Assembly (NCBI GenBank): GCA_019240475.1
Contig: JAFAYI010000008.1
Span: forward strand, 12,980-76,979
DNA length: 64,000 bases
Direction of reading: 5' to 3'
Source of the DNA: Acidobacteriaceae bacterium
GTDB taxonomy: Bacteria; Acidobacteriota; Terriglobia; Bryobacterales; Bryobacteraceae
The position numbers and the translations under genes were made by a program. Below, piece after piece: positions 21,856 through 43,306 of the stretch (positions within the stretch are counted from its first letter, which is position 1; each line of letters starts with the position of its first letter). The notes under the pieces were generated by a model. The model was not told where the DNA came from. It was given only the letters and a program-made list of their open reading frames with translations, and searched no databases.

Positions 21856-21858
21856 CGT

Positions 21859-23751: not shown

Positions 23752-23753
23752 AA

Positions 23754-24263
23754 ATGACCAGCTCAGCGTATACCGCCGTCCAGCGTGCTTGGAACACGAT
23801 GCCCGCACCTCCGGTTGAGGATCTGCAATTGATGGAGTGGGGCTGGGGTGAGAAGGCTGCCCGTGAGTTCGTGGGAGTGGCGCCGAGCAAAGTGAATATC
23901 GAATCAGAGGGCTTCGCGGCTGCAACGCCACTTCTCGATCTGGCGCCTCGGGCAGCCGCAGCTTATCTTGGCCCCTATTTGTTGTCGCTGCTGGCTGGGC
24001 TTGATTTCCAGAAGAAGGTCGGGCTGTTCGATGACGTCCTTATTCGCGCACACACCCTCACGTGCCTGACCAGTCCAGAATTTTGGGCTGGAGTGATTCG
24101 TCCTTTTCTGCCCAACGAATGTCGCCAAGCCTTGGTCGAAGTAGTTGCGTATCTCTCCTCTGAACGCCGGATGCTTTCACTCACCGACGAGCAAGTCGAG
24201 ACCATGCTTGCCGAGGCAGGGCTAAAGAGAAGATCGGGTGAGACCAAACCATGCGGCGAGTGA
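23754..24263 (+). CDS. small protein immediately downstream of payload 1 (immunity/chaperone candidate)
   Basis: The ATG lies 2 nt after the payload 1 stop; 169 aa. No motif recognised with confidence, so the role is inferred from position. Confidence 0.45.
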   Translation: MTSSAYTAVQRAWNTMPAPPVEDLQLMEWGWGEKAAREFVGVAPSKVNIESEGFAAATPLLDLAPRAAAAYLGPYLLSLLAGLDFQKKVGLFDDVLIRAHTLTCLTSPEFWAGVIRPFLPNECRQALVEVVAYLSSERRMLSLTDEQVETMLAEAGLKRRSGETKPCGE

Positions 24264-24321
24264 TGCAGTGGCGTTCATCAGCATGACAGGCGGCTGTGCA
24301 GGAAACGGCTAAAACCCAGGT

Positions 24322-27300
24322 ATGAGTGCGTCCGCTGAGCCAGTTTCAATCGCAAAAGAAACCACCTCCCGAACTCCGGAAGGGGGCGCCCCCGCGCCTC
24401 AATCGACTGTCGCAGGAATCCAAGGCGATCACACGGTGGACCGGTTCTTTGGTGCGGACGCGCTGTCTGTTCCCCGCCTAAAAGCGCCTGTGTTGCAGCG
24501 CGCACAACGCTTGTACGGAAACCAGGCGTCAGGACAAATCGTCATGCGTGCGCGGGCACTTCAACGTCACTGCGCATGCGGAGGAACATGCGCGAAGTGT
24601 CAAGCCGCCGTGCCTGATACGCAAGGAGAACCGTTACAGCTTAGCTCCCGCCGCCCTCTCGAGAATCATTTCCAAACCGATCTCGCCGCCGTCCGCATTC
24701 ACACCGGCGACGAAGCAGCGGAGTCCGCACGAAACCTCGACGCGCTTGCCTACACCAGCGGCCGCGATATTTATTTCGCTCACGGGATGTATGCGCCCTC
24801 CAGCACAAGCGGTCAGCGATTGCTCGCGCACGAAGTGGCGCACGTGGTGCAGCAGAGTTCGGGCAAAGAGCCGAGCATCGCCACGAAATCGGCGCGCGGC
24901 GCGAAGATCGGCGCGCAGGAGGACCCGCTCGAGTCCGAAGCGGAGCGTAGAGCTGAGGAGTTCACTTCGCACCCGCAAACCGCTCTCACCGACGAAGAGG
25001 AACGCAAGAAGCTCTCGACGATCCCAGGGCATCCTCCCATTCAGAGGCAACCAGATCCCGCTCAACCCTTCTCCGAACCGGCGGCCGAGTGGCCCGCAAC
25101 CGAAAGCGCCGCCGACCTCGTCTGCAAAGGAATCGAAGATGACAGCATCGATGAAGTCGTCGCGCCGATGCGCGGCTTGTCCATCGCTGGTCTCGCTTCC
25201 GTGCGAACCGCTGTTCTGTTTCGAAAGACAACACTCCTCGAACACTGGCTGTTGCAGCGGCACGGTGGAAGTACGCTCGGCGCCATCGTTTCCGCCATAG
25301 CTGTGGGGACCACCTTCGGCACTCGTCCGAAGATTACAGCCACAGCGGAAGAAGGCATGCGGCTTCTCTGGCCGGCGCTGCCGCTAATCGATCGTCTCGA
25401 AGTGTACGACGAAGGATATCGCGAAATTGAGCAGGCCCAACTCGACGTCATTCGTGAATCCAGCCTGAAAGAGCGCGCCGAAGCTCTGCAGAAGCCAGAC
25501 CGGCTGCTCGCCATCTACAAAAACATGAGCGCCAAGGAGGAGTTCGAGGCGCGTAATCTGATGGATTCCAGCGAGGTGGCAAAAGGCGACACCGCGGTTC
25601 GAATGATCCAGAGAGGCGACGACAAAGACGTCGTTTATGACGCTCTCATCGCCCTTGATCGAATCGATCGCAAGTTCGTTTGGGACCAACACTACGACGA
25701 GCTTTATCATCTCCTCGATAGTTCCGAGTTCAAGCTGGTATCCACGCTTACTCATGGCTCGGAAGCGCAGATTATCATCGCCCGGCTACGTCTTGCGACG
25801 GAAGATCGCAAGGACGACATGGAAGCGGTCCACGCCACGGTGGATCGCGCCGTGCAGTTGCTTGCCGAACGCCGGCAACTCCGCGAGGCCCGCTCTGCCA
25901 AGTTGCTGACTGCCGACGACCGCGCCGAAATCGATCAGCGATTGCAAGAATTGGGCGAGCTTGATGAGCTCGTGAAGTTCAGGCGCACCGTTGAGGGCGA
26001 CCTGAAGAAGAACACCTTCATGGAACTGCTGGCGGGGGCCGAGGATCAACAGGCTGCTTTCGGTTCCGACATGGACCGGCTCCTGCAGTTTGCGCCTAAC
26101 GGCAGAGACTTCGCGCTAGAAGCCGCAAAGCAGCGCGTTCTAATCGCCGGTGGCAACGAGGATCAGCTAAGAAGTATTCTGCTCACCACGCACGCGCCTC
26201 AGGAGGCGGGCGACAAGAACAAACGGACTGAGTTGAAGCAATGGGAAGAGGACGTTGAATTCCGAAAAGAGCTCCTGAGCGATCCCCAGGTGAGAGAAGT
26301 CTTCGACGGACTCACTCCCGCCACGCGAATGCACGTCCTCTCCGCGCTCAAAGGCGACGCCTTTGACGACGCGCTGGAGCATCTGAACCAATTGAAGAAC
26401 TCCGCGCAATGGGGCGAGTTCTTTGCGCTCGTCCGCACGGTGGCTCTCAACCCCGATTGGCGGGAGCGTTTCATCGCGACTCGCACGCAGTATTGGAGTC
26501 TTTATGCATTCGTCTCGGGCGAAGAGCGCGAAATCATGGAGAAGATTCTCTATGACCCCGAGCACAAAGTGCCCATCATCGCGCTTTTGCGGTACACGGG
26601 CAGCGTATCTACGCTCAAGGCTGCCTTCGCAAACCTTCAGGAGAGCGACCGCGAACAGCTTCGTACCGGTTGGGCGATGGCCAACCATCCCTTCATTGGC
26701 CCGCGCTCGGAGCAGCAGGACACGGCCCTCACGGCGTTCCGGACTTTCGAACAGGAGCTTCTAAAGTCTCAGGGTTCCGATCACGAAGGCTACGAAACGA
26801 TTCTCACCACCGTTCTCGGAACCGCCCCCACTAAATCCGAGATCGCCACAGGCGAAGGCCGCTACAATGCCGCCGCGATTCTTGCCGAGCGTGTCGAAAA
26901 GCGCCTGGGGCTTGAGCGCGGCATTTCCGCGGAGTTCACTGAGACCGACGAAACCATGGACGCCGCCGGACGCCAATTCGCTGCGCTATGGCTTCGTCTG
27001 AAGGGTCAGGCCGAGCTCTCCATCGTCGACTACGCCACGCTCCTGACCCTGTACCAACAGTTCGATAAGCGTGCTGAGGAATTCGGCGAAGCTTCTAAAG
27101 CTATCACGGATGTTGCAGGCACCATCGCGGCGACACTTGCTGGAATCATTGTCGTAGTCGCGACCGGCGGGGCGGCCACACCCGCCGTTGTTGCCATGGC
27201 CGCCGCGGCGGGTGCGGCGGGTGGGTTCGTTGCACGCGAGGCCTTTGGGGGCGACTACTACACGGCTATGAGTAGCGAAGGCGGCCGTGCGCTGTTGCTC

Positions 27301-28836
27301 GATTCCATAAACGGCGCGCTTGCAGTTTTGAGCGGCAGCCTTGCCGCCCGCGGCGTTGAACTTATCGGCCTCAGTGGCGATGCGCTCGCGCAAGGCATGG
27401 CGCGCGTCGGTGAAGGCGCTGTTCAGGAGGCGGCGCAGTCTCTCGGCCGCAAGGCTGTTGTCGCCGGAGTCGAAGCCGCGTTAGACGGGATGATCTCTGG
27501 AAGCATCAGCGAGGCCGCCGCGACCTTCACAGACGATCGCACGTGGCGCGAAGGAATCATGGAAGGCCTCTCGCGCGTCGGCAAGGCAGCGCTTCTCGGC
27601 GGTCTGTTCGGGATGGCTGGCGGAGCCGTCCTTGGATCCGCCATGCCGGTAGTCGGTCGCGTTGCCGGCAGGGCATGGAAGGCGGTGACCGCCGGCACAT
27701 TGGAGAAGACTCTCATTCGTGCAGGCATGGAAGACGTGCTTAAGGCAGCGGAGGCGGCCGCCAGGAGCGGGGACTCGCACGCCCTGGAAATGATGATGAC
27801 GCAAATGGAGGCGAACCTCAGCACCGAAGATGCCGCCCTCTTGCGCAAACAGCTCGGCAAAAAACTGGAGGAAGCGCTAGGGCATCCGCCAGGACGTGCA
27901 GACCTCATGCGCGACCAGGAAAAGCTGCTCGCCGCAAGCGGAAACAAAGAATCCGACCTGACAAAAGATGAGCTTGACGCCGAGCTTGACGTTGTCGCTC
28001 GCAGCGAGCCGCAGATCAGCAACGAACCCGGATACGTCGATGAGGTCGACCTCGGCTATGGACATACGTGGCGGCGCACCGAAGAAGGCACGTGGTGCCG
28101 CTTCACGAGGAAGTCCCTCTGCGGCACCAAGATCCCCGGCGCCCGCAAGATGTCGCGAGGCGCCCTGAATCGGGCAAGGCTCCTCAGTGACAAGGATATT
28201 AATGAGTGGACCAAGAACCTCGACAAACTTGCCGCTGAGGGCGGTGGGGCCGCCGCTGAAGCAGCGAGCCAGACTGCTACCGTCACCTACAACCTGCAGG
28301 ATGCCATTGATGCCGCACTTGTGGATATGAAGGGCAAGTGGGCCGGCAATATGGCCGAGAAGGGCACTCGCTTGCATGCTGCGCTTGCCCGGCGCATTCA
28401 GGAGATGGGCCTGAAGCTGCCCTCGACCATTGATGTCCAGGTTGAACAGCAGCTTAAGAACGTCTTCAACATACCCAAAAACGTTCAGAAGAAAACCGTT
28501 CGTGAGTGGCTGCAATTCGAAGGCAAGGGAGGCGGACGCGCGCACGATTGGTTAGTTCCATATCTGGATAGACGCGTACTCGATACTGCTGTCGGCGAGT
28601 TGAAACTCGACGCGGTCTTTCGCGTCGAGGGACAGACGATCATTTTCGATTTGACCAGTAGGGAAAGCGCCAGTCACCTCGCCAAATCCACACTTTACTC
28701 GCTGCTCGGCAGCGAGGAAAATCAACTGTCTCGCGTACAGGAATACTATTGGGCCCAGAGCTATGCACATGAGGCAGAAGAGAACGAAAGGGCTGCTGTC
28801 CGGCGAAGTTCAACGGCTTCAGCACCAGTAAAATAA
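24322..28836 (+). CDS. large DUF4157-domain protein, candidate eCIS payload 2 (1504 aa)
   Basis: It carries the same DUF4157 cassette as payload 1. This is followed by a long helical region, a Gly/Ala-rich hydrophobic block (about nt 27100-27690), and a distinct C-terminal domain of about 280 aa. Confidence 0.75.
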   Translation: MSASAEPVSIAKETTSRTPEGGAPAPQSTVAGIQGDHTVDRFFGADALSVPRLKAPVLQRAQRLYGNQASGQIVMRARALQRHCACGGTCAKCQAAVPDTQGEPLQLSSRRPLENHFQTDLAAVRIHTGDEAAESARNLDALAYTSGRDIYFAHGMYAPSSTSGQRLLAHEVAHVVQQSSGKEPSIATKSARGAKIGAQEDPLESEAERRAEEFTSHPQTALTDEEERKKLSTIPGHPPIQRQPDPAQPFSEPAAEWPATESAADLVCKGIEDDSIDEVVAPMRGLSIAGLASVRTAVLFRKTTLLEHWLLQRHGGSTLGAIVSAIAVGTTFGTRPKITATAEEGMRLLWPALPLIDRLEVYDEGYREIEQAQLDVIRESSLKERAEALQKPDRLLAIYKNMSAKEEFEARNLMDSSEVAKGDTAVRMIQRGDDKDVVYDALIALDRIDRKFVWDQHYDELYHLLDSSEFKLVSTLTHGSEAQIIIARLRLATEDRKDDMEAVHATVDRAVQLLAERRQLREARSAKLLTADDRAEIDQRLQELGELDELVKFRRTVEGDLKKNTFMELLAGAEDQQAAFGSDMDRLLQFAPNGRDFALEAAKQRVLIAGGNEDQLRSILLTTHAPQEAGDKNKRTELKQWEEDVEFRKELLSDPQVREVFDGLTPATRMHVLSALKGDAFDDALEHLNQLKNSAQWGEFFALVRTVALNPDWRERFIATRTQYWSLYAFVSGEEREIMEKILYDPEHKVPIIALLRYTGSVSTLKAAFANLQESDREQLRTGWAMANHPFIGPRSEQQDTALTAFRTFEQELLKSQGSDHEGYETILTTVLGTAPTKSEIATGEGRYNAAAILAERVEKRLGLERGISAEFTETDETMDAAGRQFAALWLRLKGQAELSIVDYATLLTLYQQFDKRAEEFGEASKAITDVAGTIAATLAGIIVVVATGGAATPAVVAMAAAAGAAGGFVAREAFGGDYYTAMSSEGGRALLLDSINGALAVLSGSLAARGVELIGLSGDALAQGMARVGEGAVQEAAQSLGRKAVVAGVEAALDGMISGSISEAAATFTDDRTWREGIMEGLSRVGKAALLGGLFGMAGGAVLGSAMPVVGRVAGRAWKAVTAGTLEKTLIRAGMEDVLKAAEAAARSGDSHALEMMMTQMEANLSTEDAALLRKQLGKKLEEALGHPPGRADLMRDQEKLLAASGNKESDLTKDELDAELDVVARSEPQISNEPGYVDEVDLGYGHTWRRTEEGTWCRFTRKSLCGTKIPGARKMSRGALNRARLLSDKDINEWTKNLDKLAAEGGGAAAEAASQTATVTYNLQDAIDAALVDMKGKWAGNMAEKGTRLHAALARRIQEMGLKLPSTIDVQVEQQLKNVFNIPKNVQKKTVREWLQFEGKGGGRAHDWLVPYLDRRVLDTAVGELKLDAVFRVEGQTIIFDLTSRESASHLAKSTLYSLLGSEENQLSRVQEYYWAQSYAHEAEENERAAVRRSSTASAPVK
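24433..24945 (+). repeat. copy 2 of the ~513-bp DUF4157 cassette direct repeat
   Basis: See 21967-22479. The repeat occupies the same reading-frame position in both genes, at aa 37/38 onward. Confidence 0.85.
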
Positions 28837-30828: not shown

Positions 30829-32169
30829 ATGGCTAACGCTACAGTTGCTTTGGTGGAAGAGGGATCGCATCTTGAGGATGCATTGCGTAAGCACCTGGAA
30901 TCAGCCGGGTTCGATGTGTTGTTGGCTTCTCACGACGCGCTGGACCGTGTGCTTCTTTCGCCTGCTCGCCTGTTCATAGTCGCGAACCGCTCCCCCGATA
31001 CCGCCTACGCCGTTTCTGTACTTCAGCGCCTTCACCGAGCGCGTTCGGTCGTTCCCGTCTTCCTCCTGGCTCGGGTGAGTTCAGAGCAGTTGGCCGTTGC
31101 CGCTCTTAAACAAGGGGTGGCCGATTACTTCGCTCCACCGATCGATTTGCATGACGTGATGACCGTGGTGCGTCGCGCCACCGCTTCCCGATTCGCTTTT
31201 GCGGACCGCGAGTTTAAAGTGGATAACCCGACGGGAGGCCGCGACATGATCGGCGAGAGCATCTCCATGCGCGAGCTTCGCACCTACGTCGGGAAAGTGG
31301 CGCAACGGGAATGTAACGCTCTTATCCTGGGTGAAACGGGAACGGGAAAAGACCTGGTGGCTGAGGCTATTCACTTCAACAGTCCGCGAAAAAGCAAGCC
31401 GTTCGTATCTGTAAACTGCGCTGCAATCCCCGATACGCTGCTCGAAAGCGAACTCTTCGGGTACGAAAAAGGCGCCTTCACTGGCGCGGACGGCTCCAGA
31501 GAAGGCAAAATTGGCCAGGCACAAGGCGGAACCCTCTTTTTAGATGAGATCGGCGATATGACACCCTATGCCCAAGCCAAAATCCTGCGCGTCATTGAAA
31601 GTAAGCAGATTCAACGGTTGGGAGGCAAAGCTTGCATTCCGGTAAATGTGAGAATTCTCGCCGCCACCAATCAAAATCTGCCGAAGCTGATTTCTGAACA
31701 GCGCTTTCGTAAAGACTTATACTTCCGGCTGAATGTTGCGCAAATCCCGCTGCCTTCGCTTCGCGACCGACGCGAGGATATTGGCGCGTTGCTGAACTAT
31801 TATGTGGGCGTATTCAATCACCAGAGCGGGTCACGTGTGGAAGGTTTTACAGCGCGCGCTCTGATGCGGCTCACCGAGTATGATTGGCCTGGCAACGTCC
31901 GAGAACTGCGAAGCATGGTTGAGTCCATTTTCATCGATCCGCCGTACCCCCGCATCGACGAGTGTCATCTGCCGCTGACCGGTTCGAACCTCCACCGCGC
32001 CGAAGTGGATGATCGGCAGCGCTTAATGGAGGCGCTCCGAATTACTCATTGGAATAAGAGTAAGGCGGCCGCAAGGCTGCGTTGGTCGCGCATGAAGGTC
32101 TACCGCAAGTTGGCTCAATATCGCATTGAACAACAAACCGAAAAAGCGATGTCAGCGAACGGCGGGTGA
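30829..32169 (+). CDS. sigma-54-dependent transcriptional activator (NtrC-family EBP) with degenerate receiver domain
   Basis: The AAA+ core has Walker A GETGTGKD, the GAFTGA loop (YEKGAFTGA) and LFLDEIGDM. The C-terminus is a Fis-type HTH ([21 protein letters not shown]). The N-terminal receiver-like domain lacks the canonical acidic pocket. Confidence 0.9.
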
Positions 32170-32292: not shown

Positions 32293-34815
32293 CTATTGCA
32301 GCGCACTTGCCGATACCGGCGTTGTCGCGATGCTGGTCAGCTTCCGCTGGCATCCGTCCCAAAGCGCAATCCGCGCCTCAATTCCGCTCTGCGCGGCGCT
32401 CGCCGCCTTGTCCCACAGCTCTTCCCGTTCGCCTGCCAGCCGCTCCAACATTCGCCTCGCCGCGGGACCATGGTTATCCCCATCCAGTTCTATGTGCCTC
32501 TCCAGATAAAACTTGAACGTCGGAACATCCACTTCCGGACTAGCCCAGTGTGAGAGGATCCGTTCGAACATCTCCGGGATGATATCTTCCCGGCCGTACA
32601 GGAAATCCGCTGCCACTTCCACGAGGTGGCCGTTCATCGCAACATCCAATGTGCGCAAGACGAATTTGGAAACATGTGATGGAACCCTTTGGGCTACCAG
32701 CGCATCCGCGGGCGTGCTCCCCGCCTTCAAGGCCGTCAAGAAATTGAGAAATGGGCCGGTATCTGCTCCCACCTCCCGCATTGCAGCCAAATAAATTTCC
32801 AAATGGCTGGCCGGCACGCCATCCGGACCTTCGTCGCTCTCCTCGCTATGGATGATCTCGTTGATGAAACGCGCCAGACTGGCGTCATCGGACGGCATCC
32901 AAGGAAGCCCGGTGCAAGTCAGATCGCGCTGCAGCCGCTTCGCGATCGACATGAAATCCCAAACTGCGTATACATGCTCTTCCATGAACGCGCGCAGCCG
33001 CTCTATACAGTCGACGGTCAGATAGATCGGATGCTGGAGCAATTTGTCCCGCATGGCGAACAATCCGGGGTGCTTCTTCAGAATCGTTGTGGGCAGCTTG
33101 CTCAGGTGCGGCGTGTTGCGTGGATCTGCCGCAGCTGTCAGATTGCGCGGATTGTGGAAGCACAGCGGATCGTCCGCCATGTAGCTGCCCTTGGCCTGCG
33201 CCATACCGCGGCATCCGGGACACCGGTCGCTCTCATAGTAGTAGCAGCTCGCGCACCAGCTATCGGGCGGCCGTTCATATTCGCGTAGATCCTTGACCAC
33301 CGGGCTTTCCGCCAGAATCTTCCGCAGACTGCTTTGCCGAGTGTTCCCGAGCGGAACAAATGTCCCGCTGCACGGACGTACATCCCCTTCGTAGTTCACG
33401 TACAACGAGAAGTAGTTGGCGAGGCATGAATAACCAACGCGCAGCGGCAGCAGGGGCCATGTGTAACCGTATTCGCCGCGGTCCAGCAGCCACAACTCCT
33501 CCCAAAGGTGCTTCAGTTCGAGCGGTGAGAGCAGTTCGCCCGGATCGCCATCGTAGTGGCAGCCTACGAATCTCTCGAAGTACGGAATCATTCCGCGTTC
33601 CCGCGCATATCGCCACATGGTCGGCATGTCGGAAAGGTTCTTCCGAACCACAATACTTTCAAGCGAGATCGGAAGCTTTCCATCCCCGTAGCCGGCTTCC
33701 ATAAGATGGTCGATGCCTTCGAGAACCTTGCGCCACCCTCCCCTTACGCCGACCATCTGGTCGTGTATCCAGGAGCGCGTGCTGTAAAGTTTCACGTACG
33801 GGGCCACCTTGAGCGCTGCCATGTGCTCGGCCTTTTTCCGATCGATCAACGTGCCATTCGTGAAGACCTCAACCTGCATACCGCGCTGCACTGCCCGCTC
33901 GGCCAGATGGAAGAATAACGGCGAAGAGAGCGGTTCGCCGCCGCCGATCAAATCGGCGTTCTTCGCTCCGAGATCGGCCGCCTGATCGATCACGTCGTAA
34001 AGCTCCGCCAAATCCAGTGGCGACTTGGTCGCATTGATATTGACGAAACCTGGCTCGAATTTCTCCAGCTCGAAAACGTTCTTCACATCGCCGAATCCCG
34101 CAAAGCAACCCGTGCAGGCCAGATTGCAGCGATTCGTAAATTCCATGTTGAAGTACAACAGCCGTTCGCGCCGTCGCGCCGACCAATACTCTTCATCGCT
34201 GAATCCCTCCGAATCGAACACCGGCGCCGGTCTCAGCGTTCCTCGCGCAATCTCCAACTCATCGCTTTCCGCGATGCGCTTCAGCACGTCATTCATCTCC
34301 GGTTGCGAGATGGTGTACGAGCGGTCGGTAGGAACCAGCAGCCCGCGGTCGTTCTGATATCTGACGTTCGGACGGGGCTCGACATGAATCTGAGGGCCAT
34401 CCTCTCCGCCGTCCCAGCTAATGCCGCTCGGTAGTGCTTCCGTCAGGCGAACCGGTCCGTCGAACACCACTCGGATGTCGCTTTCGACCGTGTTCTGGCA
34501 TGAGAGCCGCTTCCCTTTGAGGCGCTCGGCATTGGCCGCCTCCACCGCGTTTGGCTGGCTTATACGGCCCTCTATTAGTTCGAACCGGCAGGTCAGGCAT
34601 TTGCCCTCTCCGCCGCAGGTATGCGGAATCGAAATCCCGGAGCCTCGCGTAGCGTCCAAGATCGACTGGGCCGCCTTCACCACAAATGTGCCCTGTCCAC
34701 AGTCCACAGTGAAGGCGCCACCGGGCTGGCTGGAACGTAAGTTCCGCGCTGCTGTTGTATCCTCCACCGGGAAAGTGGCGCCGTTCTGCAACGGACTTCC
34801 GCTCGCTGTGCTCAT
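32293..34815 (-). CDS. three-domain fusion: 2Fe-2S ferredoxin / radical SAM with SPASM extension / DUF3050 (haem-oxygenase-like fold)
   Basis: The ATG has an AAGGAG RBS. The ferredoxin motif is HTCGGEGKCLTCRF..RLSCQ. The rSAM motif is FTNRCNLACTGCFAG (CxxxCxxC). The SPASM region is Cys-rich (RPCSG.., WCASCYYYESDRCPGCRG..DPLCF). The C-terminal HPIYLTV..FMEEHVYAVWDFMSIAKRLQ..PWMP..INEIIHSEESDEG..SHLEIYLAAM resembles DUF3050. Confidence 0.85.
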   Translation of the reverse strand: MSTASGSPLQNGATFPVEDTTAARNLRSSQPGGAFTVDCGQGTFVVKAAQSILDATRGSGISIPHTCGGEGKCLTCRFELIEGRISQPNAVEAANAERLKGKRLSCQNTVESDIRVVFDGPVRLTEALPSGISWDGGEDGPQIHVEPRPNVRYQNDRGLLVPTDRSYTISQPEMNDVLKRIAESDELEIARGTLRPAPVFDSEGFSDEEYWSARRRERLLYFNMEFTNRCNLACTGCFAGFGDVKNVFELEKFEPGFVNINATKSPLDLAELYDVIDQAADLGAKNADLIGGGEPLSSPLFFHLAERAVQRGMQVEVFTNGTLIDRKKAEHMAALKVAPYVKLYSTRSWIHDQMVGVRGGWRKVLEGIDHLMEAGYGDGKLPISLESIVVRKNLSDMPTMWRYARERGMIPYFERFVGCHYDGDPGELLSPLELKHLWEELWLLDRGEYGYTWPLLPLRVGYSCLANYFSLYVNYEGDVRPCSGTFVPLGNTRQSSLRKILAESPVVKDLREYERPPDSWCASCYYYESDRCPGCRGMAQAKGSYMADDPLCFHNPRNLTAAADPRNTPHLSKLPTTILKKHPGLFAMRDKLLQHPIYLTVDCIERLRAFMEEHVYAVWDFMSIAKRLQRDLTCTGLPWMPSDDASLARFINEIIHSEESDEGPDGVPASHLEIYLAAMREVGADTGPFLNFLTALKAGSTPADALVAQRVPSHVSKFVLRTLDVAMNGHLVEVAADFLYGREDIIPEMFERILSHWASPEVDVPTFKFYLERHIELDGDNHGPAARRMLERLAGEREELWDKAASAAQSGIEARIALWDGCQRKLTSIATTPVSASALQ

Positions 34816-36658: not shown

Positions 36659-36958
36659 GTGGCTAAAGCACTGGAAGGAACGCCTGGAGCGAGCATCGAG
36701 TTGCTTGAAGAAGGCGCGGACATGCATGTTGAACGATCCGTCATCAAAGCGGGCGGTACGATTCCGGAACATTCTCACAAGGTCGCGTCCAGCTACGTTG
36801 TGGTCAAGGGCAGCGGAGAGCTGACTGGAAAATCCGGACGGCGTGTGTCCACCGGTGATACGGTTCTGATTCCCGCCGGGCAGCAGCACGGTTGGAAAGG
36901 CGGTGAGGGCGATGGCCTCACCATCGTTGGCGTGTTCAACGGGCCGCAAGAGCAATAA
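36659..36958 (+). CDS. cupin-domain protein
   Basis: GTG 36659 lies 5 nt after GGAGG (36649-36653); the track start is TTG 36647. AGGTIPEHSH..VVVKGSGELT..GDTVLIPAGQQHGW is a classic two-motif cupin metal site. Confidence 0.65.
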   Translation: MAKALEGTPGASIELLEEGADMHVERSVIKAGGTIPEHSHKVASSYVVVKGSGELTGKSGRRVSTGDTVLIPAGQQHGWKGGEGDGLTIVGVFNGPQEQ

Positions 36959-37025
36959 CAGACATTCTCCCGGAAACGCTGGCGTTTCCAGATGCGGGCG
37001 TTTCCGCTTTTCCGCAGGAGCCTAC

Positions 37026-38231
37026 TTGCTAACCCGCGATACGAACCTACGCCTGGCCCCGGGTCTGCAAGTTACCTCCTTAGGTCAGGAAGTCGTGCTG
37101 GAGGGCAGACGCGACGCCATTCCGTGCCCTCGCGACGTTCTATTCGCGCTTCAGAGACTACCCTGCACCCTGGGCGCACTTGTCGATAACTTGCCTTCGC
37201 CGTCGGCCTACGAATGGATGGCCGCCTCGGCCGGTCTAATGGTGCTGATTGGAGCCGGTGTTGTCCTCAGCGGCGAGGATTCCTGCCGGGCGCAGTTTCT
37301 GGATCATGGTTTCGGGTTTGTGGAACCGCATATCGCCATGATCCAGGACGTGAGGCGAACACAGCTCTTTATGGAAGCGATCCGGCGAACTGTGGCGCCC
37401 GGGGATGTCGTGGCCGATCTTGGTACGGGCAGCGGCGTCCTTGCAATTGCCGCGGCTTTGGCAGGCGCGCGTCGCGTCTATGCCTTGGAACGCAGCGGCA
37501 TCGCCGAGGTCGCCGCGCGCATGTTTGAAAAAAACGGCATCGCGGAGCGCGTCACGCTTATCCGGGATAGCTCGAGTTCTCTCTCGCTTCCCGAGCGGGC
37601 GCAAGTGCTGGTCGCCGAACTGATCGGCACAGATCCATTGTGTGAACGCATTCTTGAGTACACCGCCGATGCGGTCGAGCGTTTGCTGGTCCCCCATCCT
37701 CGCCTGATTCCGAGCGCCTTGCGGATTTTCGTGCGAGCGGTCGAACTCCCGGACACAGTCACCCAACGGCATATTGTCGAAAAGCCTCTTGCGGCACGCT
37801 GGGCCGATTTGTATGGATTCGATTTTTCCGCACTGGAGGAAGCGACCGCGGGAATTTCGGCTTACTTTACGGTCGCAACCCCAGTGGCGGCGCAATGGGC
37901 TACTTTAACGGATGCAACGAAACTCGTTGACATCGATCTCGCACGCTGTCCCGCTCTGCCGTTGCAAGTCTCCACCGCTGCGGTCGTGACGACGCCCGGG
38001 GTTATGAACGGCCTCACGGTATTTTGGGAGATCGACCTGGCTCCCGATATCCGCTTCTCGAACGATCCGCAATTATGTGATGCGAATTGCTGCTGGGGCA
38101 CGGCTGTGTGGCTCCTGGCGGAACGCCCACGGGTGCGCGAAGGGCAAACGATCCGCCTGAACTTTCGCTATGCCGCATCGCGATCTTCGGCGAACGCGAC
38201 ACTCGAGCGCTCCGAGGCATGCCGGGCATGA
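37026..38231 (+). CDS. protein-arginine-methyltransferase (PRMT)-like class I methyltransferase
   Basis: TTG 37026 lies 5 nt after GGAG; the track start GTG 36903 overlaps the cupin gene. Motif I is VVADLGTGSGVLAIAAALAGARRVYALE. VLVAELIGTDPLCERIL looks like the PRMT double-E loop. LIPSALRIFV follows, as in the PRMT beta-barrel junction. Confidence 0.65.
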   Translation: MLTRDTNLRLAPGLQVTSLGQEVVLEGRRDAIPCPRDVLFALQRLPCTLGALVDNLPSPSAYEWMAASAGLMVLIGAGVVLSGEDSCRAQFLDHGFGFVEPHIAMIQDVRRTQLFMEAIRRTVAPGDVVADLGTGSGVLAIAAALAGARRVYALERSGIAEVAARMFEKNGIAERVTLIRDSSSSLSLPERAQVLVAELIGTDPLCERILEYTADAVERLLVPHPRLIPSALRIFVRAVELPDTVTQRHIVEKPLAARWADLYGFDFSALEEATAGISAYFTVATPVAAQWATLTDATKLVDIDLARCPALPLQVSTAAVVTTPGVMNGLTVFWEIDLAPDIRFSNDPQLCDANCCWGTAVWLLAERPRVREGQTIRLNFRYAASRSSANATLERSEACRA

Positions 38232-39316
38232 AAATCCGGGTCGACCCCGCTATCCACATTCACTCCGACCTCGGCGCTCCCGGAACTTCGGGACGCCAAC
38301 TGATTCTCGAAAGCCTGCGGTCGGGTCTGCGGTTCGAGTTGTTGGGCACACCTGCATTGCAGGCTTTGAACCGTGCCGCGCATTGGATGGAGGCGGACGA
38401 CTTTCTTGAGGCGCTGACATCTAGCGGCCTGGAACGTGCCAAGGCCGTTGCTTTTCTCGATGACGCACTCGGGAATAGCCTGCTTCAGCGCTTTGCCCCA
38501 GGAGCCCACGACGAGGACGCGCGCGCAATTGCATTGAATCGCGCCAGTGCTTCTCTGGCGCAGCAGTTCCTGCTCGCCAGGTCCCATCAGCAGTATCTCG
38601 ACTATAGCCTCCCCGAGACATGCGGCATTGAAGAAGACCTAATGTCGGCTTACCGCTCACAGGAGACGCCTCCACCGATATTCAAAGACTGCGACCGGCC
38701 ACTCAAAACTGTGACCCTTCCCGCAGTTCGAGAAGCGTTGCCGGCAGTTCTGTGCGATGAGCCTGACGCTTCAGAAAATGCACCGCGCGATGTGAGATGG
38801 CTGGCGGAATTCCTGCGGGCCGCCGTCGGGGCAACAGCGACGCTGGAAGATCCTGTGCAGGGCACGCTCCTTTTGAAGACCTATCCATCCGGCGGAGCAC
38901 GCCATCCCGTGGAGTGCTATCTGGCGGTACGCTCCGTTGAACAACTGGCTCCCGGTTTTTATCACTACTCGGTCCGCCGGCATGAATTAGATCGAATATC
39001 AGATATCCAGGATTCTCTAAGTACCTGCCTGTTTCCCGGCTTCAATTCAGAGTTGGTTATTGTACTTACGGCTCTTCCCGAACGAGCAATGTGGAGATAC
39101 CGGGAAACCACCTCGATCAGCGTCGTGTTGCTCGATGTGGGCCACGCGGTCGGAAATTTTTCACTGCTCTGTGAATGCGAGGGGACGCCGTATCGCATCC
39201 ATACAGGCGCGAATCTTAATCGCGCCGCAAATTACATGTCTCTCGAACAGTTTCGCGAAGTAGTGGTTGCAGCGATCGCACTTGATCTATCAGCGCGCGC
39301 AAAGAATGGGGAATGA
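38228..39316 (+). CDS. SagB-type dehydrogenase / nitroreductase-superfamily protein 1
   Basis: The ATG overlaps the upstream stop (ATGA). LLLKTYPSGGARHPVECYLAVRSVEQLAPGFYHYSVRRHEL matches the SagB-type signature (PSaGa..P.E.Y...gl..G.Y.Y). Confidence 0.7.
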   Translation: MKIRVDPAIHIHSDLGAPGTSGRQLILESLRSGLRFELLGTPALQALNRAAHWMEADDFLEALTSSGLERAKAVAFLDDALGNSLLQRFAPGAHDEDARAIALNRASASLAQQFLLARSHQQYLDYSLPETCGIEEDLMSAYRSQETPPPIFKDCDRPLKTVTLPAVREALPAVLCDEPDASENAPRDVRWLAEFLRAAVGATATLEDPVQGTLLLKTYPSGGARHPVECYLAVRSVEQLAPGFYHYSVRRHELDRISDIQDSLSTCLFPGFNSELVIVLTALPERAMWRYRETTSISVVLLDVGHAVGNFSLLCECEGTPYRIHTGANLNRAANYMSLEQFREVVVAAIALDLSARAKNGE

Positions 39317-40344
39317 TGCGTCGATATCGCGTGAATCCTTTACTGGCGGCCGGGTGGCGCGCAACTGAATTGCAGACGCCTCTGAGATTCACGCTAGAAG
39401 ATGCGCTTTCTAACTGTGCTCGACCGCTCGACGCGGAAGACTTCTGGGTTCTGAACTTTGCCAAGAGTATTGGCGAAGCTGCGCAAACCAGATCCCAATT
39501 ACTGGCCGAAGCAGTTCGATTCGCCCTCTTGCCTGAGCAGGAAGTCGAGCGGACCCTCGCGCCGCTATGGGATGTCCTATTTGTAGCGGAGGACTCCGGA
39601 AGCCAAGTAGACCGTGCGGTCGGTGTATGGGAGCATTTCGACTGCAAGCTGGCGCTCGAGTTCTATGCGCAATCGCTCGACGAAGGGCATCAAAAGCATA
39701 GTCCGGACCGCTCGGTTTCTTCGAGCGGCTTCCCGGAGGCGGACATACCACTGCCCGCGCCCGTGAGTTTTCCCCACACATCGCTGGCAAACGTTCTGTA
39801 CAGACGGCGCACGTGCCGCAATTTTAATGGCCGCTCCGTCCCGCTTGATCTTCTGTCGTCGGTGCTGCATCGAGGGATCGCGCGCGCCTCTGCGCACTTC
39901 CCGCCATTCGCGGTCCAGTATCACCTGATTGTATTGCGCGCCGGGGGCCTCGCCTCCGGTTCTTATATCTACGATGCCGCCCGCCATGCGGTAGCAGCTC
40001 TCCGTCAGAGAGAGTCGACCGACTTGGAGCAGGATCTGGTCCAGATGCTCATCGGACAGAAGTACGTCAAAGGATGTGCCGCAGCGCTGCTGCTGTGGCT
40101 CGATACAGCTTCTCTGGTCATCGGCGATCCGGGGCCTGCAGCTTTTCGGAAGTGGCTGATCGCAACTGGCGCCTTGGCGCAGAGACTCATTGTGTTAGGC
40201 TGCGCATTGGGTTTGGAAACATTTCTCTCGGCCGCGATTCATGATGCGTACGCGCGTCATATTACGTGCAACCGCCTGAAAGACCGCTATGTTCCCATGC
40301 ATTGCGTGGCCTTCGGCTATGCCGATGCTACTAATTCCTGCTAA
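39313..40344 (+). CDS. SagB-type dehydrogenase / nitroreductase-superfamily protein 2
   Basis: The ATG overlaps the upstream stop. LANVLYRRRTCRNFNGRSVPLDLLSSVL is a nitroreductase N-motif, and GGLASGSYIYDAARHAV is a SagB-like segment. Confidence 0.6.
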   Translation: MMRRYRVNPLLAAGWRATELQTPLRFTLEDALSNCARPLDAEDFWVLNFAKSIGEAAQTRSQLLAEAVRFALLPEQEVERTLAPLWDVLFVAEDSGSQVDRAVGVWEHFDCKLALEFYAQSLDEGHQKHSPDRSVSSSGFPEADIPLPAPVSFPHTSLANVLYRRRTCRNFNGRSVPLDLLSSVLHRGIARASAHFPPFAVQYHLIVLRAGGLASGSYIYDAARHAVAALRQRESTDLEQDLVQMLIGQKYVKGCAAALLLWLDTASLVIGDPGPAAFRKWLIATGALAQRLIVLGCALGLETFLSAAIHDAYARHITCNRLKDRYVPMHCVAFGYADATNSC

Positions 40345-40397: not shown

Positions 40398-40610
40398 ATG
40401 AATCCATATGAAATTAAATTACTGGCCAGGCATGCCGATGCTCTGGCACGTCATCCCGGTCTGGCACGCCACGCTGGTCTCGCCCGTCACCCCGGCTTAG
40501 CCCGCCATCCAGGCTTAGCTCGTCATTCGGGCCTTGCTCGCCATCCCGGTCCGGCCCGCCATCCCGGTGTCGTGGCCAGCACAGAGCAGTCAGGCAGCGG
40601 CACTGACTGA
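40398..40610 (+). CDS. 70-aa repeat peptide, candidate multi-core RiPP precursor (nine A-R-H-x-G units)
   Basis: AGGAG lies 7 nt upstream of the ATG. The sequence is MNPYEIKL-LARHADA-LARHPG-LARHAG-LARHPG-LARHPG-LARHSG-LARHPG-PARHPG-VVASTEQSGSGTD. The units differ mostly at synonymous third positions, so the peptide rather than the DNA is conserved. Confidence 0.7.
   Translation: MNPYEIKLLARHADALARHPGLARHAGLARHPGLARHPGLARHSGLARHPGPARHPGVVASTEQSGSGTD
40422..40568 (+). repeat. in-frame tandem repeat of an 18-nt (hexapeptide) unit, about 8 copies; the first unit is 21 nt
   Basis: Read directly: ctg gca cgt cat ccc ggt / ctg gca cgc cac gct ggt / ctc gcc cgt cac ccc ggc / tta gcc cgc cat cca ggc / tta gct cgt cat tcg ggc / ctt gct cgc cat ccc ggt / ccg gcc cgc cat ccc ggt. 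Confidence 0.9.
40587..40609 (+). other. stem-loop at the 3' end of the precursor ORF (7-bp stem CAGTCAG/CTGACTG, 9-nt loop)
   Basis: A perfect 7-bp inverted repeat spans the last codons and the stop codon. No U-tract follows, so it is not a canonical intrinsic terminator. It may be an RNA stability or processing element. Confidence 0.3.
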
Positions 40611-40666: not shown

Positions 40667-41773
40667 ATGGCCTCCCCGCATGTCCGTCCCGCAGCCGAAT
40701 CGATCGAAATCGACGGTTCTCGTTTTCACCTGATCTGGCTGCGGGATAATTGCCGCTGCAACTTCTGCCAGGACTCCGGGACCATGCAGAAGCTGTTCGA
40801 CATTACGGCAACTGACCTACAACCGCGCGTCCGGAACCTCTGCATAGACCAGGATTCGGTGTGCATCACGTGGGACGAAGCGCCTCTGCATGAATCCGTG
40901 TATGGCCGCAAATGGCTCCAGGCGCATGCCTACGACAAGCTTTCGGAGATGCCCGAGGAACAGCCGCCTGTCGAACTTTGGCACGCCTCGCGCTGGACCG
41001 CGAGCCCCCCTCCGGCCTATTTGCCGGATTCATCCACTTGGCACAATTACCTTAATCGGCTAGGATTCGCGCTGCTAAGGGATCTGCCGCCCGAGTCCTT
41101 CCTGAATTTCCTTCGTAGCATCGGCCCCATCCAGCCAACCGAGTTTGGTGATGTGGCGCCGCTTCGCGCTTCCCTCAACGCCAACGATCTCGGCGAAACC
41201 GGATGCCATCTCGATCCGCACACGGACTACTCCGTGTACATGCATTTCCCGCCCGTGCTCAGCTTTCTGCATTGCATTCGCAACGATTCCGACGGGGGCG
41301 TCTCCATTCTTGTGGATGGATTTGCCGCCGCCGAACATTTTCGCCGCGAAGATCCGGCCGGTTTCGATCTCCTTGCCTGTACTCGCCTTCCGTTTCATCA
41401 GTTATATGGACGCTGGCGCTATCACCACAAGCGGCTCAGACCCATGATCGAGTTGGACGAGGACGGAAGTATCCTCGGTGTCCACGTCGGACACCCGCAC
41501 ACCAGAAACTGGCGCTTTCCGTTTGACACGATGGCCCCGCTGTATATGGCCTACTCTCGCTTTATCAGGATCCTCAACGATGCGTCCCGGCAATTTTATT
41601 ACCGCCTGCAACCGAATGAATGTCTGGTCTTCCTCAACCAGCGTGTGCTGCATGGACGGACTGCGTTCTCCCCGGATGCTGGCGAGCGTCATCTCCAGGT
41701 CGCGTACGTGAACTGGTCTTACTTCGCCGCGCGGCGACGATTTGAAGACCAGAGGAGCAGCGAACTCGTTTGA
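40667..41773 (+). CDS. Fe(II)/2-oxoglutarate dioxygenase of the gamma-butyrobetaine/trimethyllysine hydroxylase type (TauD superfamily with DUF971-like N-domain)
   Basis: The N-terminal IEIDGSRFHLIWLRDNCRCNFC carries the CxCxxC zinc motif of the GBBH N-domain. The facial triad candidates are HLDPHTDYS (HxD) and the distal RVLHGRTAF. Confidence 0.8.
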   Translation: MASPHVRPAAESIEIDGSRFHLIWLRDNCRCNFCQDSGTMQKLFDITATDLQPRVRNLCIDQDSVCITWDEAPLHESVYGRKWLQAHAYDKLSEMPEEQPPVELWHASRWTASPPPAYLPDSSTWHNYLNRLGFALLRDLPPESFLNFLRSIGPIQPTEFGDVAPLRASLNANDLGETGCHLDPHTDYSVYMHFPPVLSFLHCIRNDSDGGVSILVDGFAAAEHFRREDPAGFDLLACTRLPFHQLYGRWRYHHKRLRPMIELDEDGSILGVHVGHPHTRNWRFPFDTMAPLYMAYSRFIRILNDASRQFYYRLQPNECLVFLNQRVLHGRTAFSPDAGERHLQVAYVNWSYFAARRRFEDQRSSELV

Positions 41774-42201
41774 TGTCGGGCAGCATCATCTCATGCGAGA
41801 GCCCTCGAGAACGACTGCAAGTTTCGCCCGCCGTCATCACGAAACTGATCGGACGCGATCTCGTGCTTCTCGACCTTCAGTCCGGTCGGTATTATATGCT
41901 CGCTCCCACCGCCAGAGTGTTTTGGACCGAGATTCTTCGGGAGGATTCTCGATCGCCGATTCTCGATCGATTATCGGCCTTGTTCCGTGCAGGTCCCGGG
42001 CAACTCGAAGCCGATCTGGGTGAGTTCTCGGCGGCCATTCGGGCGGCCGGCCTGATCACGCACGGGCTAGATCGCGAATGTCGTTCCGGGATTCCCGCGG
42101 ATCTCTCGGTATCCGATCTGCCGCCATACTCCAAGCCGGAGTTGTTTCTGGCTGGCCATGTACGTGATTTCACCTCTGAGCCACTACGAAAAGACGAATG
42201 A
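41773..42201 (+). CDS. PqqD-family protein (RiPP recognition element candidate)
   Basis: The ATG overlaps the upstream stop (TGATG). LIGRDLVLLDLQSGRYYMLAPTARVFWTEIL..LDRLSALF..QLEADLGEFSAAIRAAGLI matches the PqqD/RRE pattern. Confidence 0.7.
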   Translation: MSGSIISCESPRERLQVSPAVITKLIGRDLVLLDLQSGRYYMLAPTARVFWTEILREDSRSPILDRLSALFRAGPGQLEADLGEFSAAIRAAGLITHGLDRECRSGIPADLSVSDLPPYSKPELFLAGHVRDFTSEPLRKDE

Positions 42202-42952: not shown

Positions 42953-43306
42953 CTATTCCTATTTTCGACGACGCGCAAAGCGGCGAGCGCGACCACGCCA
43001 CTTCATCCCAGACTCGAACACGCGAATCCGATGAAGCGGCAGCCGAGAGCTATCCAGGGCGGGTATCGATATGATCTCAGCAACTATTTTCTCGAGCACC
43101 ACTTTGGGATTTCTTCTTGACAGACTTCAATCGATCCATTAACGTTCAACTAAAGGTTAGCGAAATTCGCATAAGCGCGACAATGCGAGCAATCCTGCAG
43201 TTCGTCCCTTGCCATTCGCGCGAATTGCTACGACTCGTGATTTTGACGTTTTCTCAACGTGACTGTCAGAGTTCCAGGCCTTGCTCTGAACCTTCAAGGA
43301 GATTGT

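Follow-up and report, generated by a model that had tools for sequence, protein, structure and literature searches.

Radical S-adenosylmethionine (SAM) enzymes are destroyed by oxygen and need external low-potential electron carriers, and enzymes of the HamA type need oxygen. What could a protein be for that joins both chemistries, together with a ferredoxin of its own, in one polypeptide? This question is raised by a locus of an Acidobacteriaceae bacterium, which we analysed within a stretch of 64,000 nucleotides (GenBank assembly GCA_019240475.1, contig JAFAYI010000008.1, positions 12,980 to 76,979; the whole stretch is hereafter referred to as the window). One open reading frame (ORF) in it encodes a plant-type ferredoxin (Fer2), a radical SAM core, a SPASM domain and a haem-oxygenase-like (HO-like) domain of the HamA type. 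The fusion is a real single-chain, four-module metalloenzyme at the centre of a rare conserved biosynthetic cassette. We propose that it may serve there as a self-reducing maturase of a ribosomally synthesized and post-translationally modified peptide (RiPP), a proposal in which our belief and our doubt are about equal.

The fused protein and its family

The protein of 840 amino acids (aa) is read from an ATG start on the minus strand (32293..34815). An earlier note on this DNA, made from the letters alone, had given the same interval and missed the strand; a plus-strand reading of it was ruled out by the many stops in its translation. All four modules exceeded their Pfam gathering cut-offs (Fer2, aa 40-109, 44.1 bits versus 21; Radical_SAM, aa 224-378, 58.3 bits versus 29.5; SPASM, aa 464-525, 35.0 bits versus 21.5; DUF3050/PF11251, called HamA_HO-like in newer Pfam releases, aa 592-821, 278 bits, E = 8e-83, versus 22.2). 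The domain calls and boundaries made by eye were thereby borne out, and the motifs quoted for them (CGGEGKCLTC...C, CNLACTGC, HVYAVWDFMSIAKRLQ and SHLEIYLAAM) are all present in the translation.

The cysteine ligands were invariant in 12 of 12 orthologues. These include the ligands of Fer2 (C67-x5-C73-x2-C76-x29-C106, which fits the plant-type spacing CX4-5CX2CX29C), the radical SAM signature CX3CX2C (C230-x3-C234-x2-C237, within CNLACTGC) and eight auxiliary cysteines (C419, C464, C482, C521, C524, C532, C535 and C552). The SPASM motif has all seven cysteines and reads C464-x12-G-x4-C482, then C521-x2-C524-x7-C532-x2-C535, then C552, the spacing of its middle block departing from the consensus used here (CX9-15GX4C ... 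CX2CX5CX3C ... C). By analogy with known SPASM enzymes, the eight auxiliary cysteines may provide all the ligands of two auxiliary [4Fe-4S] clusters. In a sequence search of the PDB, the Fer2 module matched ferredoxins and the Fer2 domain of CarAd. Foldseek comparisons with the PDB gave SkfB, PqqE, SuiB and anSME as neighbours of the radical SAM part, and 9VWB as the top match of the HO fold, with CADD, UndA and PqqC among the matches that followed. The full-length AlphaFold2 (AF2) model had a mean predicted local distance difference test score (pLDDT) of 68.6 and a predicted template modelling score (pTM) of 0.47, with a fair Fer2 module and a HamA domain mostly at pLDDT 80-95 (62-75 in three blocks of 10 residues). 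The window protein also carries a 21-residue insertion after its conserved MSTAS start (aa 7-27; 34735-34797, minus strand), which is absent from the other members and is predicted to be disordered (pLDDT <30).

The C-terminal module is a close relative of HamA (PDB 9VWB; phmmer E = 3.9e-58, 41% identity over 237 columns), and its model aligned with that structure at a target TM-score of 0.92 and a root-mean-square deviation of 1.9 Å, consistent with a seven-helix HO-like fold. HamA has been described as a mono-iron HO-fold enzyme that binds 2-oxoglutarate (Kd ~208 µM) and adds an oxygen atom to N-hydroxy-valine tethered on the HamD carrier domain, with H40, E84, H96, R167, H199 and R240 as key residues (PMC12522199). 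Residues H614, E658, H671, R742, H774, D778, H782 and R815 of the fusion correspond to HamA H40, E84, H96, R167, H199, D203, H207 and R240. The di-iron centre entertained in the earlier note thus finds no backing, given that the only characterised member is reported to be mono-iron and 2-oxoglutarate-binding (PMC12522199) and that the residues proposed for it are conserved in the fusion. Nine key HamA residues were kept in 117 of 117 stand-alone DUF3050 homologues. The eight scored ones were intact in seven of the eight fusions of the near (acidobacterial) clade, including the window protein, the eighth (P0004) having a glycine at the D203 position. Judged from these residues, the HamA domain is probably active in the window fusion.

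A public protein from an Acidobacteriaceae metagenome-assembled genome (MAG) is 100% identical to the fusion and is recorded as a 'DUF3050 domain-containing protein' (P0001). At full length, the four-domain architecture was found in 12 clusters at 90% identity, 51-100% identical to the query and distributed across Acidobacteriota, Eremiobacterota, Planctomycetota and Rhodothermia. These clusters derive from NCBI, JGI, ENA and Logan assemblies, and their inter-domain linker is conserved. It had been conceded at the outset that the long ORF might be an assembly or frameshift artefact joining separate genes; with 12 independent clusters, each having one continuous ORF, and with no split adjacent genes among the loci examined, we regard this as ruled out to virtual certainty. 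The fusion is nevertheless rare: among 185,579 species genomes (one scanned per species) it occurred in four, all MAGs (Eremiobacterota, Planctomycetaceae, Rhodothermia and Bryobacteraceae), and the remaining matches were generic radical SAM proteins at ≤34% identity. Similarly, among 1.84 billion representatives at 50% identity, only four matched the radical SAM-SPASM core at an identity of at least 45%, and 96 did so at E ≤ 1e-30. The DUF3050 family gave 5313 matches at E ≤ 1e-20; 120 of the 120 listed matches were single-domain, and no radical SAM gene neighboured P0061 (60% identity), the nearest stand-alone homologue whose context could be used, so the fusion appears to be a rare, derived event.

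Assignment to a curated radical SAM family failed, since no NCBIfam model came near its cut-off for the fusion or for the remote relatives tested (best match of the fusion, the NirJ2 model, 86 bits versus 500). Full-text literature searches for the architecture, DUF3050 fusions, ferredoxin-fused SPASM enzymes and RiPPs with a ligase plus a radical SAM enzyme returned nothing relevant, in line with the earlier statement that the architecture is uncharacterised. The modules are individually of known kinds. Their union in one chain appears to be undescribed, as do a dedicated ferredoxin on a SPASM enzyme, an O2-dependent oxygenase tethered to an O2-labile radical enzyme, and the surrounding gene cluster.

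We further compared the modules between the near clade and the far clade, which share 70% identity in the radical SAM core, 81% in SPASM, 47% in Fer2 and 35% in the HamA domain. Four relatives (P0014, P0015, P0016 and the protein of L093) comprise Fer2, radical SAM and SPASM in full within ~555 aa but have no HamA domain, and they stop ~10 residues past a conserved DPRNSPHL motif; the L093 ORF is continuous. Fer2 was present in all family members of at least 60% identity, these four included. Because the HamA-less relatives keep Fer2, the ferredoxin belongs with the radical SAM core, and the HamA domain is an add-on. In a sister clade (45-49% identity), the N-terminal slot is filled in P0018 by an acyl-CoA-dehydrogenase flavoprotein and in P0017 by an ABC ATPase. 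This distribution of modules supports, and does not prove, the suggestion made at the start that Fer2 is a built-in reductant.

The gene cluster and its repeat peptide

In the window, the fusion forms a minus-strand operon with a methyltransferase gene, whose stop overlaps the start of a ligase gene by 4 nucleotides (nt), and with that ligase gene, from which it is separated by 27 nt; there is a promoter-like site at 36466-36437. The features of the locus are listed in Table 1. The base composition gave no signal of horizontal transfer, the locus having a GC fraction of ~0.58 like its surroundings. Both the 70-aa peptide and the PqqD protein named in the earlier note exist, although the note missed the repeat structure of the peptide and the two constant partners, the GCS2-like ligase and the HemK-like methyltransferase.

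Table 1. Modules of the fusion and genes of the surrounding cluster (window positions)
Feature	Position	Strand	Details
Fusion ORF	32293..34815	-	Fer2 - linker - radical SAM - SPASM - HamA-type HO-like domain; ORF translation and Pfam
HamA-type haem-oxygenase-like non-haem iron domain (putative), aa 588-825	32341..33054	-	H614, E658, H671, R742, H774, D778, H782, R815
SPASM domain, aa 421-560	33136..33555	-	7 Cys: C464, C482, C521, C524, C532, C535, C552
Radical SAM core, aa 196-420	33556..34230	-	CX3CX2C C230/C234/C237; GGGEP SAM-binding motif 291-295; extra Cys C419
Plant-type [2Fe-2S] ferredoxin module, aa 35-120	34456..34713	-	Ligands C67, C73, C76, C106
GCS2/YbdK-like carboxylate-amine ligase, 307 aa	34843..35766	-	Pfam GCS2 23.9 bits
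HemK/PrmC-like N-methyltransferase, 211 aa called in L005	35763..36398	-	Pfam MTS 43 bits; PrmC 59 bits; NPPF motif
Small cupin, 99 aa	36659..36958	+	Pfam Cupin_2 37.7 bits; HxH...H metal motifs; first gene of divergent operon
Protein arginine methyltransferase (PRMT) homologue	36912..38231	+	Catalytic domain and PRMT_C barrel; Pfam PrmA, PRMT_C
SagB-type FMN dehydrogenase-like protein 1 (SagB1)	38228..39316	+	TIGR03605 85 bits versus cut-off 78.4
SagB/nitroreductase-like protein 2 (SagB2)	39313..40344	+	Pfam Nitroreductase 37.5 bits; TIGR04511 57 bits, under cut-off
70-aa precursor-like peptide	40398..40610	+	Leader MNPYEIK..., eight x-L/P-A-R-H-x units, C-terminal tail
Fe/2-oxoglutarate hydroxylase, gamma-butyrobetaine hydroxylase (GBBH)/TmpA type	40667..41773	+	Pfam TauD 127 bits and GBBH-like_N
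PqqD-family peptide-binding protein (RiPP recognition element, RRE)	41770..42201	+	Pfam PqqD 37.3 bits

All loci pair the radical SAM family with a ligase of ~305 aa and a HemK/PrmC-like MTS methyltransferase, except for L010, in which ligase fragments alone were found. The GCS2-like ligase (a family of 35 clusters) adjoins the radical SAM gene in all loci examined, the L010 copy being frameshifted or fragmented on a truncated contig. On the contig of P0007, a single protein of 532 aa (P0032) combines the HemK-like methyltransferase with the GCS2-like ligase, which supports joint action of the two. In PDB searches, the ligase had no relative, the PRMT homologue matched PRMT7, CARM1, PRMT6 and PRMT1 (E = 1e-19 to 1e-15), SagB1 matched CyaGox and McbC, and the hydroxylase matched TmpA (E = 1.5e-47) and GBBH (E = 4e-40). 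The PqqD protein scored 31.9 bits with the lasso PqqD chaperone model, under its cut-off. Cupins were also present in L003, L008 (277 aa, three Cupin_2 stretches) and L009 (TIR plus bicupin); the window cupin showed no specific similarity to SznF or to other cupins forming N-N bonds.

The acidobacterial and eremiobacterial clade shares a further set, comprising a precursor peptide of 4-10 G[LI]ARHx repeats with PqqD, a hydroxylase of the GBBH/TmpA type, a PRMT homologue, a cupin and two SagB-like proteins. Precursor and PqqD are co-encoded in near-clade loci (the window, L003, L008 and L015) and in metagenome loci. The 70-aa peptide of the window (MNPYEIKLLARHADALARHPGLARHAGLARHPGLARHPGLARHSGLARHPGPARHPGVVASTEQSGSGTD) is encoded by DNA with an 18-nt period (7.1 copies, 74% matches in a tandem-repeat scan), and its counterparts in L003, L008 and L015 have 6, 9 and 6 G[LI]ARHx units, respectively, or 10 in L008 with a final ARQ unit. 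These peptides share the leader x-[YF]-[ED]-I-[KR]-P, and A-R-H is invariant in 29 of 29 units from four loci. Because differences between units are mostly synonymous (in L008, 117 synonymous versus 18 non-synonymous), the peptide sequence, not the DNA repeat, is under purifying selection. In L003 and L008, the peptide gene comes next after the fusion, in the same orientation, and is followed by the hydroxylase and PqqD genes.

A metagenome scan with a degenerate three-unit DNA pattern detected 14 stretches, of which three had the leader motif, all with cluster genes: L096 (peptide, fusion at 76% identity and hydroxylase), L104 (peptide, hydroxylase and PqqD) and L099 (a peptide with only four ARH units, and SagB2). 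The other 11 were deemed spurious, eight of them having ARH-type repeats in one frame or another while lacking leader and cluster genes, and three lacking a peptide-like ORF. GC-rich metagenome stretches with (G/x)[LIVFM]ARHxG repeats in one frame, but neither a YEIKP-type leader nor cluster genes, occurred in L100, L101, L102, L103, L105 and L108; these repeats are probably chance or non-coding. Overall, the fusion is present at four of seven independent peptide loci, and the other three are short contigs carrying only other cluster genes. In L008 (12804-14354), the GBBH/TauD-like hydroxylase and PqqD form one protein of 516 aa, so there the peptide-recognition element would serve at least the hydroxylase.

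Beyond the cluster, the window encodes a sigma-54 enhancer-binding response regulator (30829-32169, plus strand) that converges on the 3' end of the fusion gene; sigma-54 promoter matches near the cluster were no better than chance. Just downstream of the cluster lies a large CarboxypepD_reg/outer-membrane beta-barrel protein resembling TonB-dependent receptors (43259-47041, plus strand), which might take up a metal-binding product. TonB-dependent-receptor-like genes are very common in Acidobacteria. Farther away (19597-28836, plus strand), an AAA+ ATPase (752 aa) precedes two large proteins (630 and 1504 aa). Over their first ~200 residues these two are near-identical and contain an eCIS_core/DUF4157 domain (PF13699), and they resemble paralogous effectors or toxins from a system of the contractile-injection type.

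Proposed peptide maturation and competing explanations

If the fusion is a peptide maturase, its ferredoxin module would take electrons from a cellular reductase and pass them to the radical SAM cluster, which would make the enzyme independent of a free low-potential carrier in an aerobe. The reduced cluster would cleave SAM, and the resulting 5'-deoxyadenosyl radical could attack the repeats at their Arg-His core by hydrogen-atom abstraction, with PqqD presenting the 70-aa precursor via its conserved YEIKP-type leader; the outcome of this step may be a cross-link or an oxidised intermediate. The tethered HamA domain might then hydroxylate the same Arg-His unit with O2 and probably 2-oxoglutarate, the likeliest target being a nitrogen in an arginine side chain that the PRMT homologue has already methylated. 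Completion of the product would fall to the cupin together with the GBBH-like hydroxylase, SagB-like flavoproteins, GCS2-like ligase and HemK-like N-methyltransferase. Proteolysis of the 4-10 repeats could finally let each precursor give rise to multiple copies of a small modified Arg-His compound, in parallel with peptide-derived cofactors such as pyrroloquinoline quinone (PQQ). A peptide substrate is supported by SagB1, which scores above the peptide-dehydrogenase cut-off of TIGR03605.

A bolder version, which we consider a long shot, is that the cluster yields the first ribosomal product with an N-oxygenated or N-N-bonded arginine, such as a diazeniumdiolate (graminine-like) or N-nitrosourea group next to histidine. 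In this version, peptidyl-arginine would undergo methylation by the PRMT homologue, N-hydroxylation by the HamA domain and rearrangement by the cupin, and the radical SAM module would cross-link or excise the Arg-His unit. Were this true, each precursor could supply up to eight copies of a metal-binding or nitric oxide-releasing small molecule. As things stand, N-N bond formation in this cluster is purely hypothetical.

Several observations weigh against peptide maturation by the fusion. Within the protein, we recognised no RRE, the linker (aa 121-195) being short, mostly helical and unlike PqqD, and in L008 the PqqD domain is joined to the hydroxylase, not to the radical SAM enzyme. The AF2 model has pLDDT <50 in the cluster-binding loop and most of SPASM, too weak for domain contacts, and the mono-iron, 2-oxoglutarate assignment of HamA depends on a single paper. 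HamA residues are lost in the far clade (several in P0009, P0012 and P0013, some in P0010). By this sequence comparison the domain is decayed in distant orthologues, so its oxygenase activity is not essential to the family. The earlier proposal of two consecutive oxidative steps on one substrate, still conjectural, is weakened by the same losses in orthologues whose radical SAM/SPASM core is nearly invariant.

The far-clade gene content points in the same direction. Precursor and PqqD are absent from far-clade and HamA-less loci, and L001, L006, L007, L009, L011 and L093 lack the peptide, PqqD, PRMT homologue and SagB-like genes; in L001, L006, L007, the HamA-less L009 and L093, all without ARH peptide or PqqD, the radical SAM/SPASM core is still 70-81% identical. 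These loci instead contain genes for PanD-like decarboxylases (L006, L007, L011 and L093; 78 bits to panD), B12-binding radical SAM proteins (L006, L011 and L093), a PhyH-like dioxygenase (L006) and fatty acid desaturase-like proteins (L001, and L092 beside a ligase homologue), while the sister-clade locus L011, which lacks Fer2, has spermidine-synthase-like and AdoMet-decarboxylase genes. A non-peptide common substrate is plausible, given that other genes take the place of the peptide there, and the make-up of these loci is the strongest argument in its favour. No conserved small ORF emerged from the far-clade loci, since an all-against-all comparison of 769 small ORFs gave only shadow ORFs within conserved genes, and tandem-repeat scans for precursors in these loci detected nothing except an unrelated 24-aa-repeat ORF in L093.

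Individual far-clade loci have features of their own. L093 carries, ~1 kb downstream of the cassette (6588-6947), that ORF of 119 aa with about four copies of the 24-aa repeat (SVPSYLSGVERDNWLLDKGLVEMP), which might be a different multi-core precursor or unrelated. L011 (1344-10297) contains an ABC-ATPase fused to radical SAM-SPASM, cobW, a solute-binding protein, a methyltransferase and a ligase, and its polyamine-like gene set points to small-molecule chemistry. In L009 (2010-3392), a protein with a TIR domain and a double cupin is encoded directly upstream of the methyltransferase, Fer2-radical SAM-SPASM and ligase genes, a hint that the HamA-less cassette may act in defence or signalling. 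The desaturase-like membrane protein beside the Rhodothermia fusion in L001 (12402-13220) had as its best, weak NCBIfam match GntB, the guanitoxin L-arginine gamma-hydroxylase (E = 2e-10, 41 bits versus a cut-off of 380), a faint hint of arginine as a common substrate. Several far-clade loci are located in mobile or defence islands.

These data fit the main alternative, possible though rather doubtful, in which Fer2-radical SAM-SPASM, ligase and N-methyltransferase form an ancient unit making an amino-acid- or polyamine-like molecule, e.g., by ligation, N-methylation and a radical step, and the fusion never touches a peptide backbone; in Acidobacteria, the trio would sit beside a separate peptide operon or supply a group attached to the peptide. 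The trio is the sole set common to all loci, its ligase and methyltransferase are fused in P0032, its radical SAM/SPASM core stays 70-81% identical across differing contexts, and it is transcribed divergently from the peptide operon in the window; the PanD-like, B12-radical SAM, SpeE-like and AdoMet_dc genes of the precursor-less far-clade loci likewise suit such a unit. However, in L003 and L008 the fusion is followed at once, on its own strand, by the precursor, hydroxylase and PqqD genes, four near-clade loci with different arrangements keep both gene sets together, and the structural neighbours of the radical SAM part among SPASM enzymes are peptide maturases. HemK-like enzymes, moreover, are protein methyltransferases. 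What belief remains beyond peptide maturation and the small-molecule unit goes to variants.

One such variant, which we think unlikely, would employ the extra modules otherwise, the HamA domain as a non-catalytic scaffold or substrate-binding lid and Fer2 as an electron sink re-oxidising the auxiliary clusters after a two-electron oxidation. SPASM enzymes that perform net oxidations (anSME, MftC) do need an electron outlet, and in P0009, P0012 and P0013 the HamA ligands are degenerate, yet neither the domain nor the conserved linker has been lost. The donor and sink roles of Fer2 are compatible, though, and HamA residues intact in seven of eight near-clade proteins and 117 of 117 stand-alone homologues argue for retained catalysis. 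Less probable still, in our view, is an anti-phage or toxin system, in which the cassette would make an antiviral or toxic nucleotide- or amino-acid-derived molecule, like prokaryotic viperins. It would account for the surroundings of L001 (GmrSD, Fic, HsdR and an integrase), L007 (DUF1156, SNF2 and nSTAND3 genes), L009 (the TIR-bicupin gene directly upstream) and L093 (toxin-antitoxin genes), and for weak matches to pVip hidden Markov models. Those matches, however, are limited to the generic cluster-binding N-terminus (aa 222-333); PADLOC gave no match for the ligase, the cupin and four other scanned cluster proteins and only partial, generic mad2 matches for the two methyltransferases, and at the window locus the GC content is host-like and mobile genes are absent alongside.

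A natural chain that joins both chemistries to its own ferredoxin provides a system for asking how aerobes feed electrons to radical SAM clusters, and likewise how oxygen-sensitive and oxygen-dependent steps are coupled. The cluster brings together parts not previously seen together (PRMT homologue, GBBH-like enzyme, cupin, two SagB-like flavoproteins, ligase, N-methyltransferase and ARH-repeat precursor) and, for genome mining in poorly studied soil phyla, is a strong lead to a new peptide-derived metabolite.

Relation to known systems

The set of parts recalls the PQQ pathway (PqqA, PqqD, PqqE and the HO-fold PqqC), as PqqE and PqqC are among the Foldseek neighbours and the multi-copy repeats suggest that a small molecule is cut out of the peptide. 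In contrast to that pathway, the HO fold is HamA-like, not PqqC-like, and shares a chain with the radical SAM enzyme, which scores 51 bits with the PqqE model TIGR02109 (cut-off 381) and thus falls outside PqqE. The precursor core consists of Ala-Arg-His repeats instead of the Glu...Tyr of PqqA, and the window cluster adds PRMT, GBBH-like, SagB-like, ligase and methyltransferase genes.

An arginine methyltransferase with an HO-like oxygenase and a cupin has precedent in SznE/SznF and GrbD (PMC11705231). In SznE/SznF (streptozotocin) and GrbD/GrbE (graminine), a guanidino methyltransferase, an HO-like iron oxygenase and a cupin act on the arginine side chain, and every window-type repeat has an invariant Arg. 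SznF and GrbD differ in that their HO-like domain is fused to the cupin and their substrate is free arginine, whereas the window cupin is a separate protein of 99 aa; the fusion lacks the joined haem-oxygenase-like di-iron oxidase and three-His cupin that define those enzymes, and arginine would be its substrate only by inference. The parallels with PQQ and with SznE/SznF/GrbD are therefore resemblances and not memberships, as the family-specific criteria fail.

With the radical SAM/SPASM maturases SkfB, SuiB, MftC and anSME, the fusion shares CX3CX2C, the full seven-Cys SPASM motif, structural similarity and, in near-clade loci, a PqqD-type partner. What sets it apart from these enzymes is the Fer2 at its N-terminus and the oxygenase at its C-terminus, both confined to the fusion family; we recognised no RRE inside it.

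The clearest homology is to HamA/PvfA/MgoB of the fragin-valdiazen, pvf and mangotoxin clusters, which covers the C-terminal 240 aa of the fusion, and a cupin partner like HamB is encoded nearby. HamA itself is a stand-alone protein of ~270 aa that acts on N-hydroxy-valine tethered to the carrier protein of an NRPS (non-ribosomal peptide synthetase), alongside an AurF-like N-oxygenase; none of the loci examined had an NRPS, carrier protein or AurF-like gene, and thus none has the HamC/HamD context. In the fusion, by contrast, the domain is joined to a radical SAM enzyme and its substrate is likely ribosomal, which offers a second, non-NRPS context for studying HamA/PvfA chemistry.

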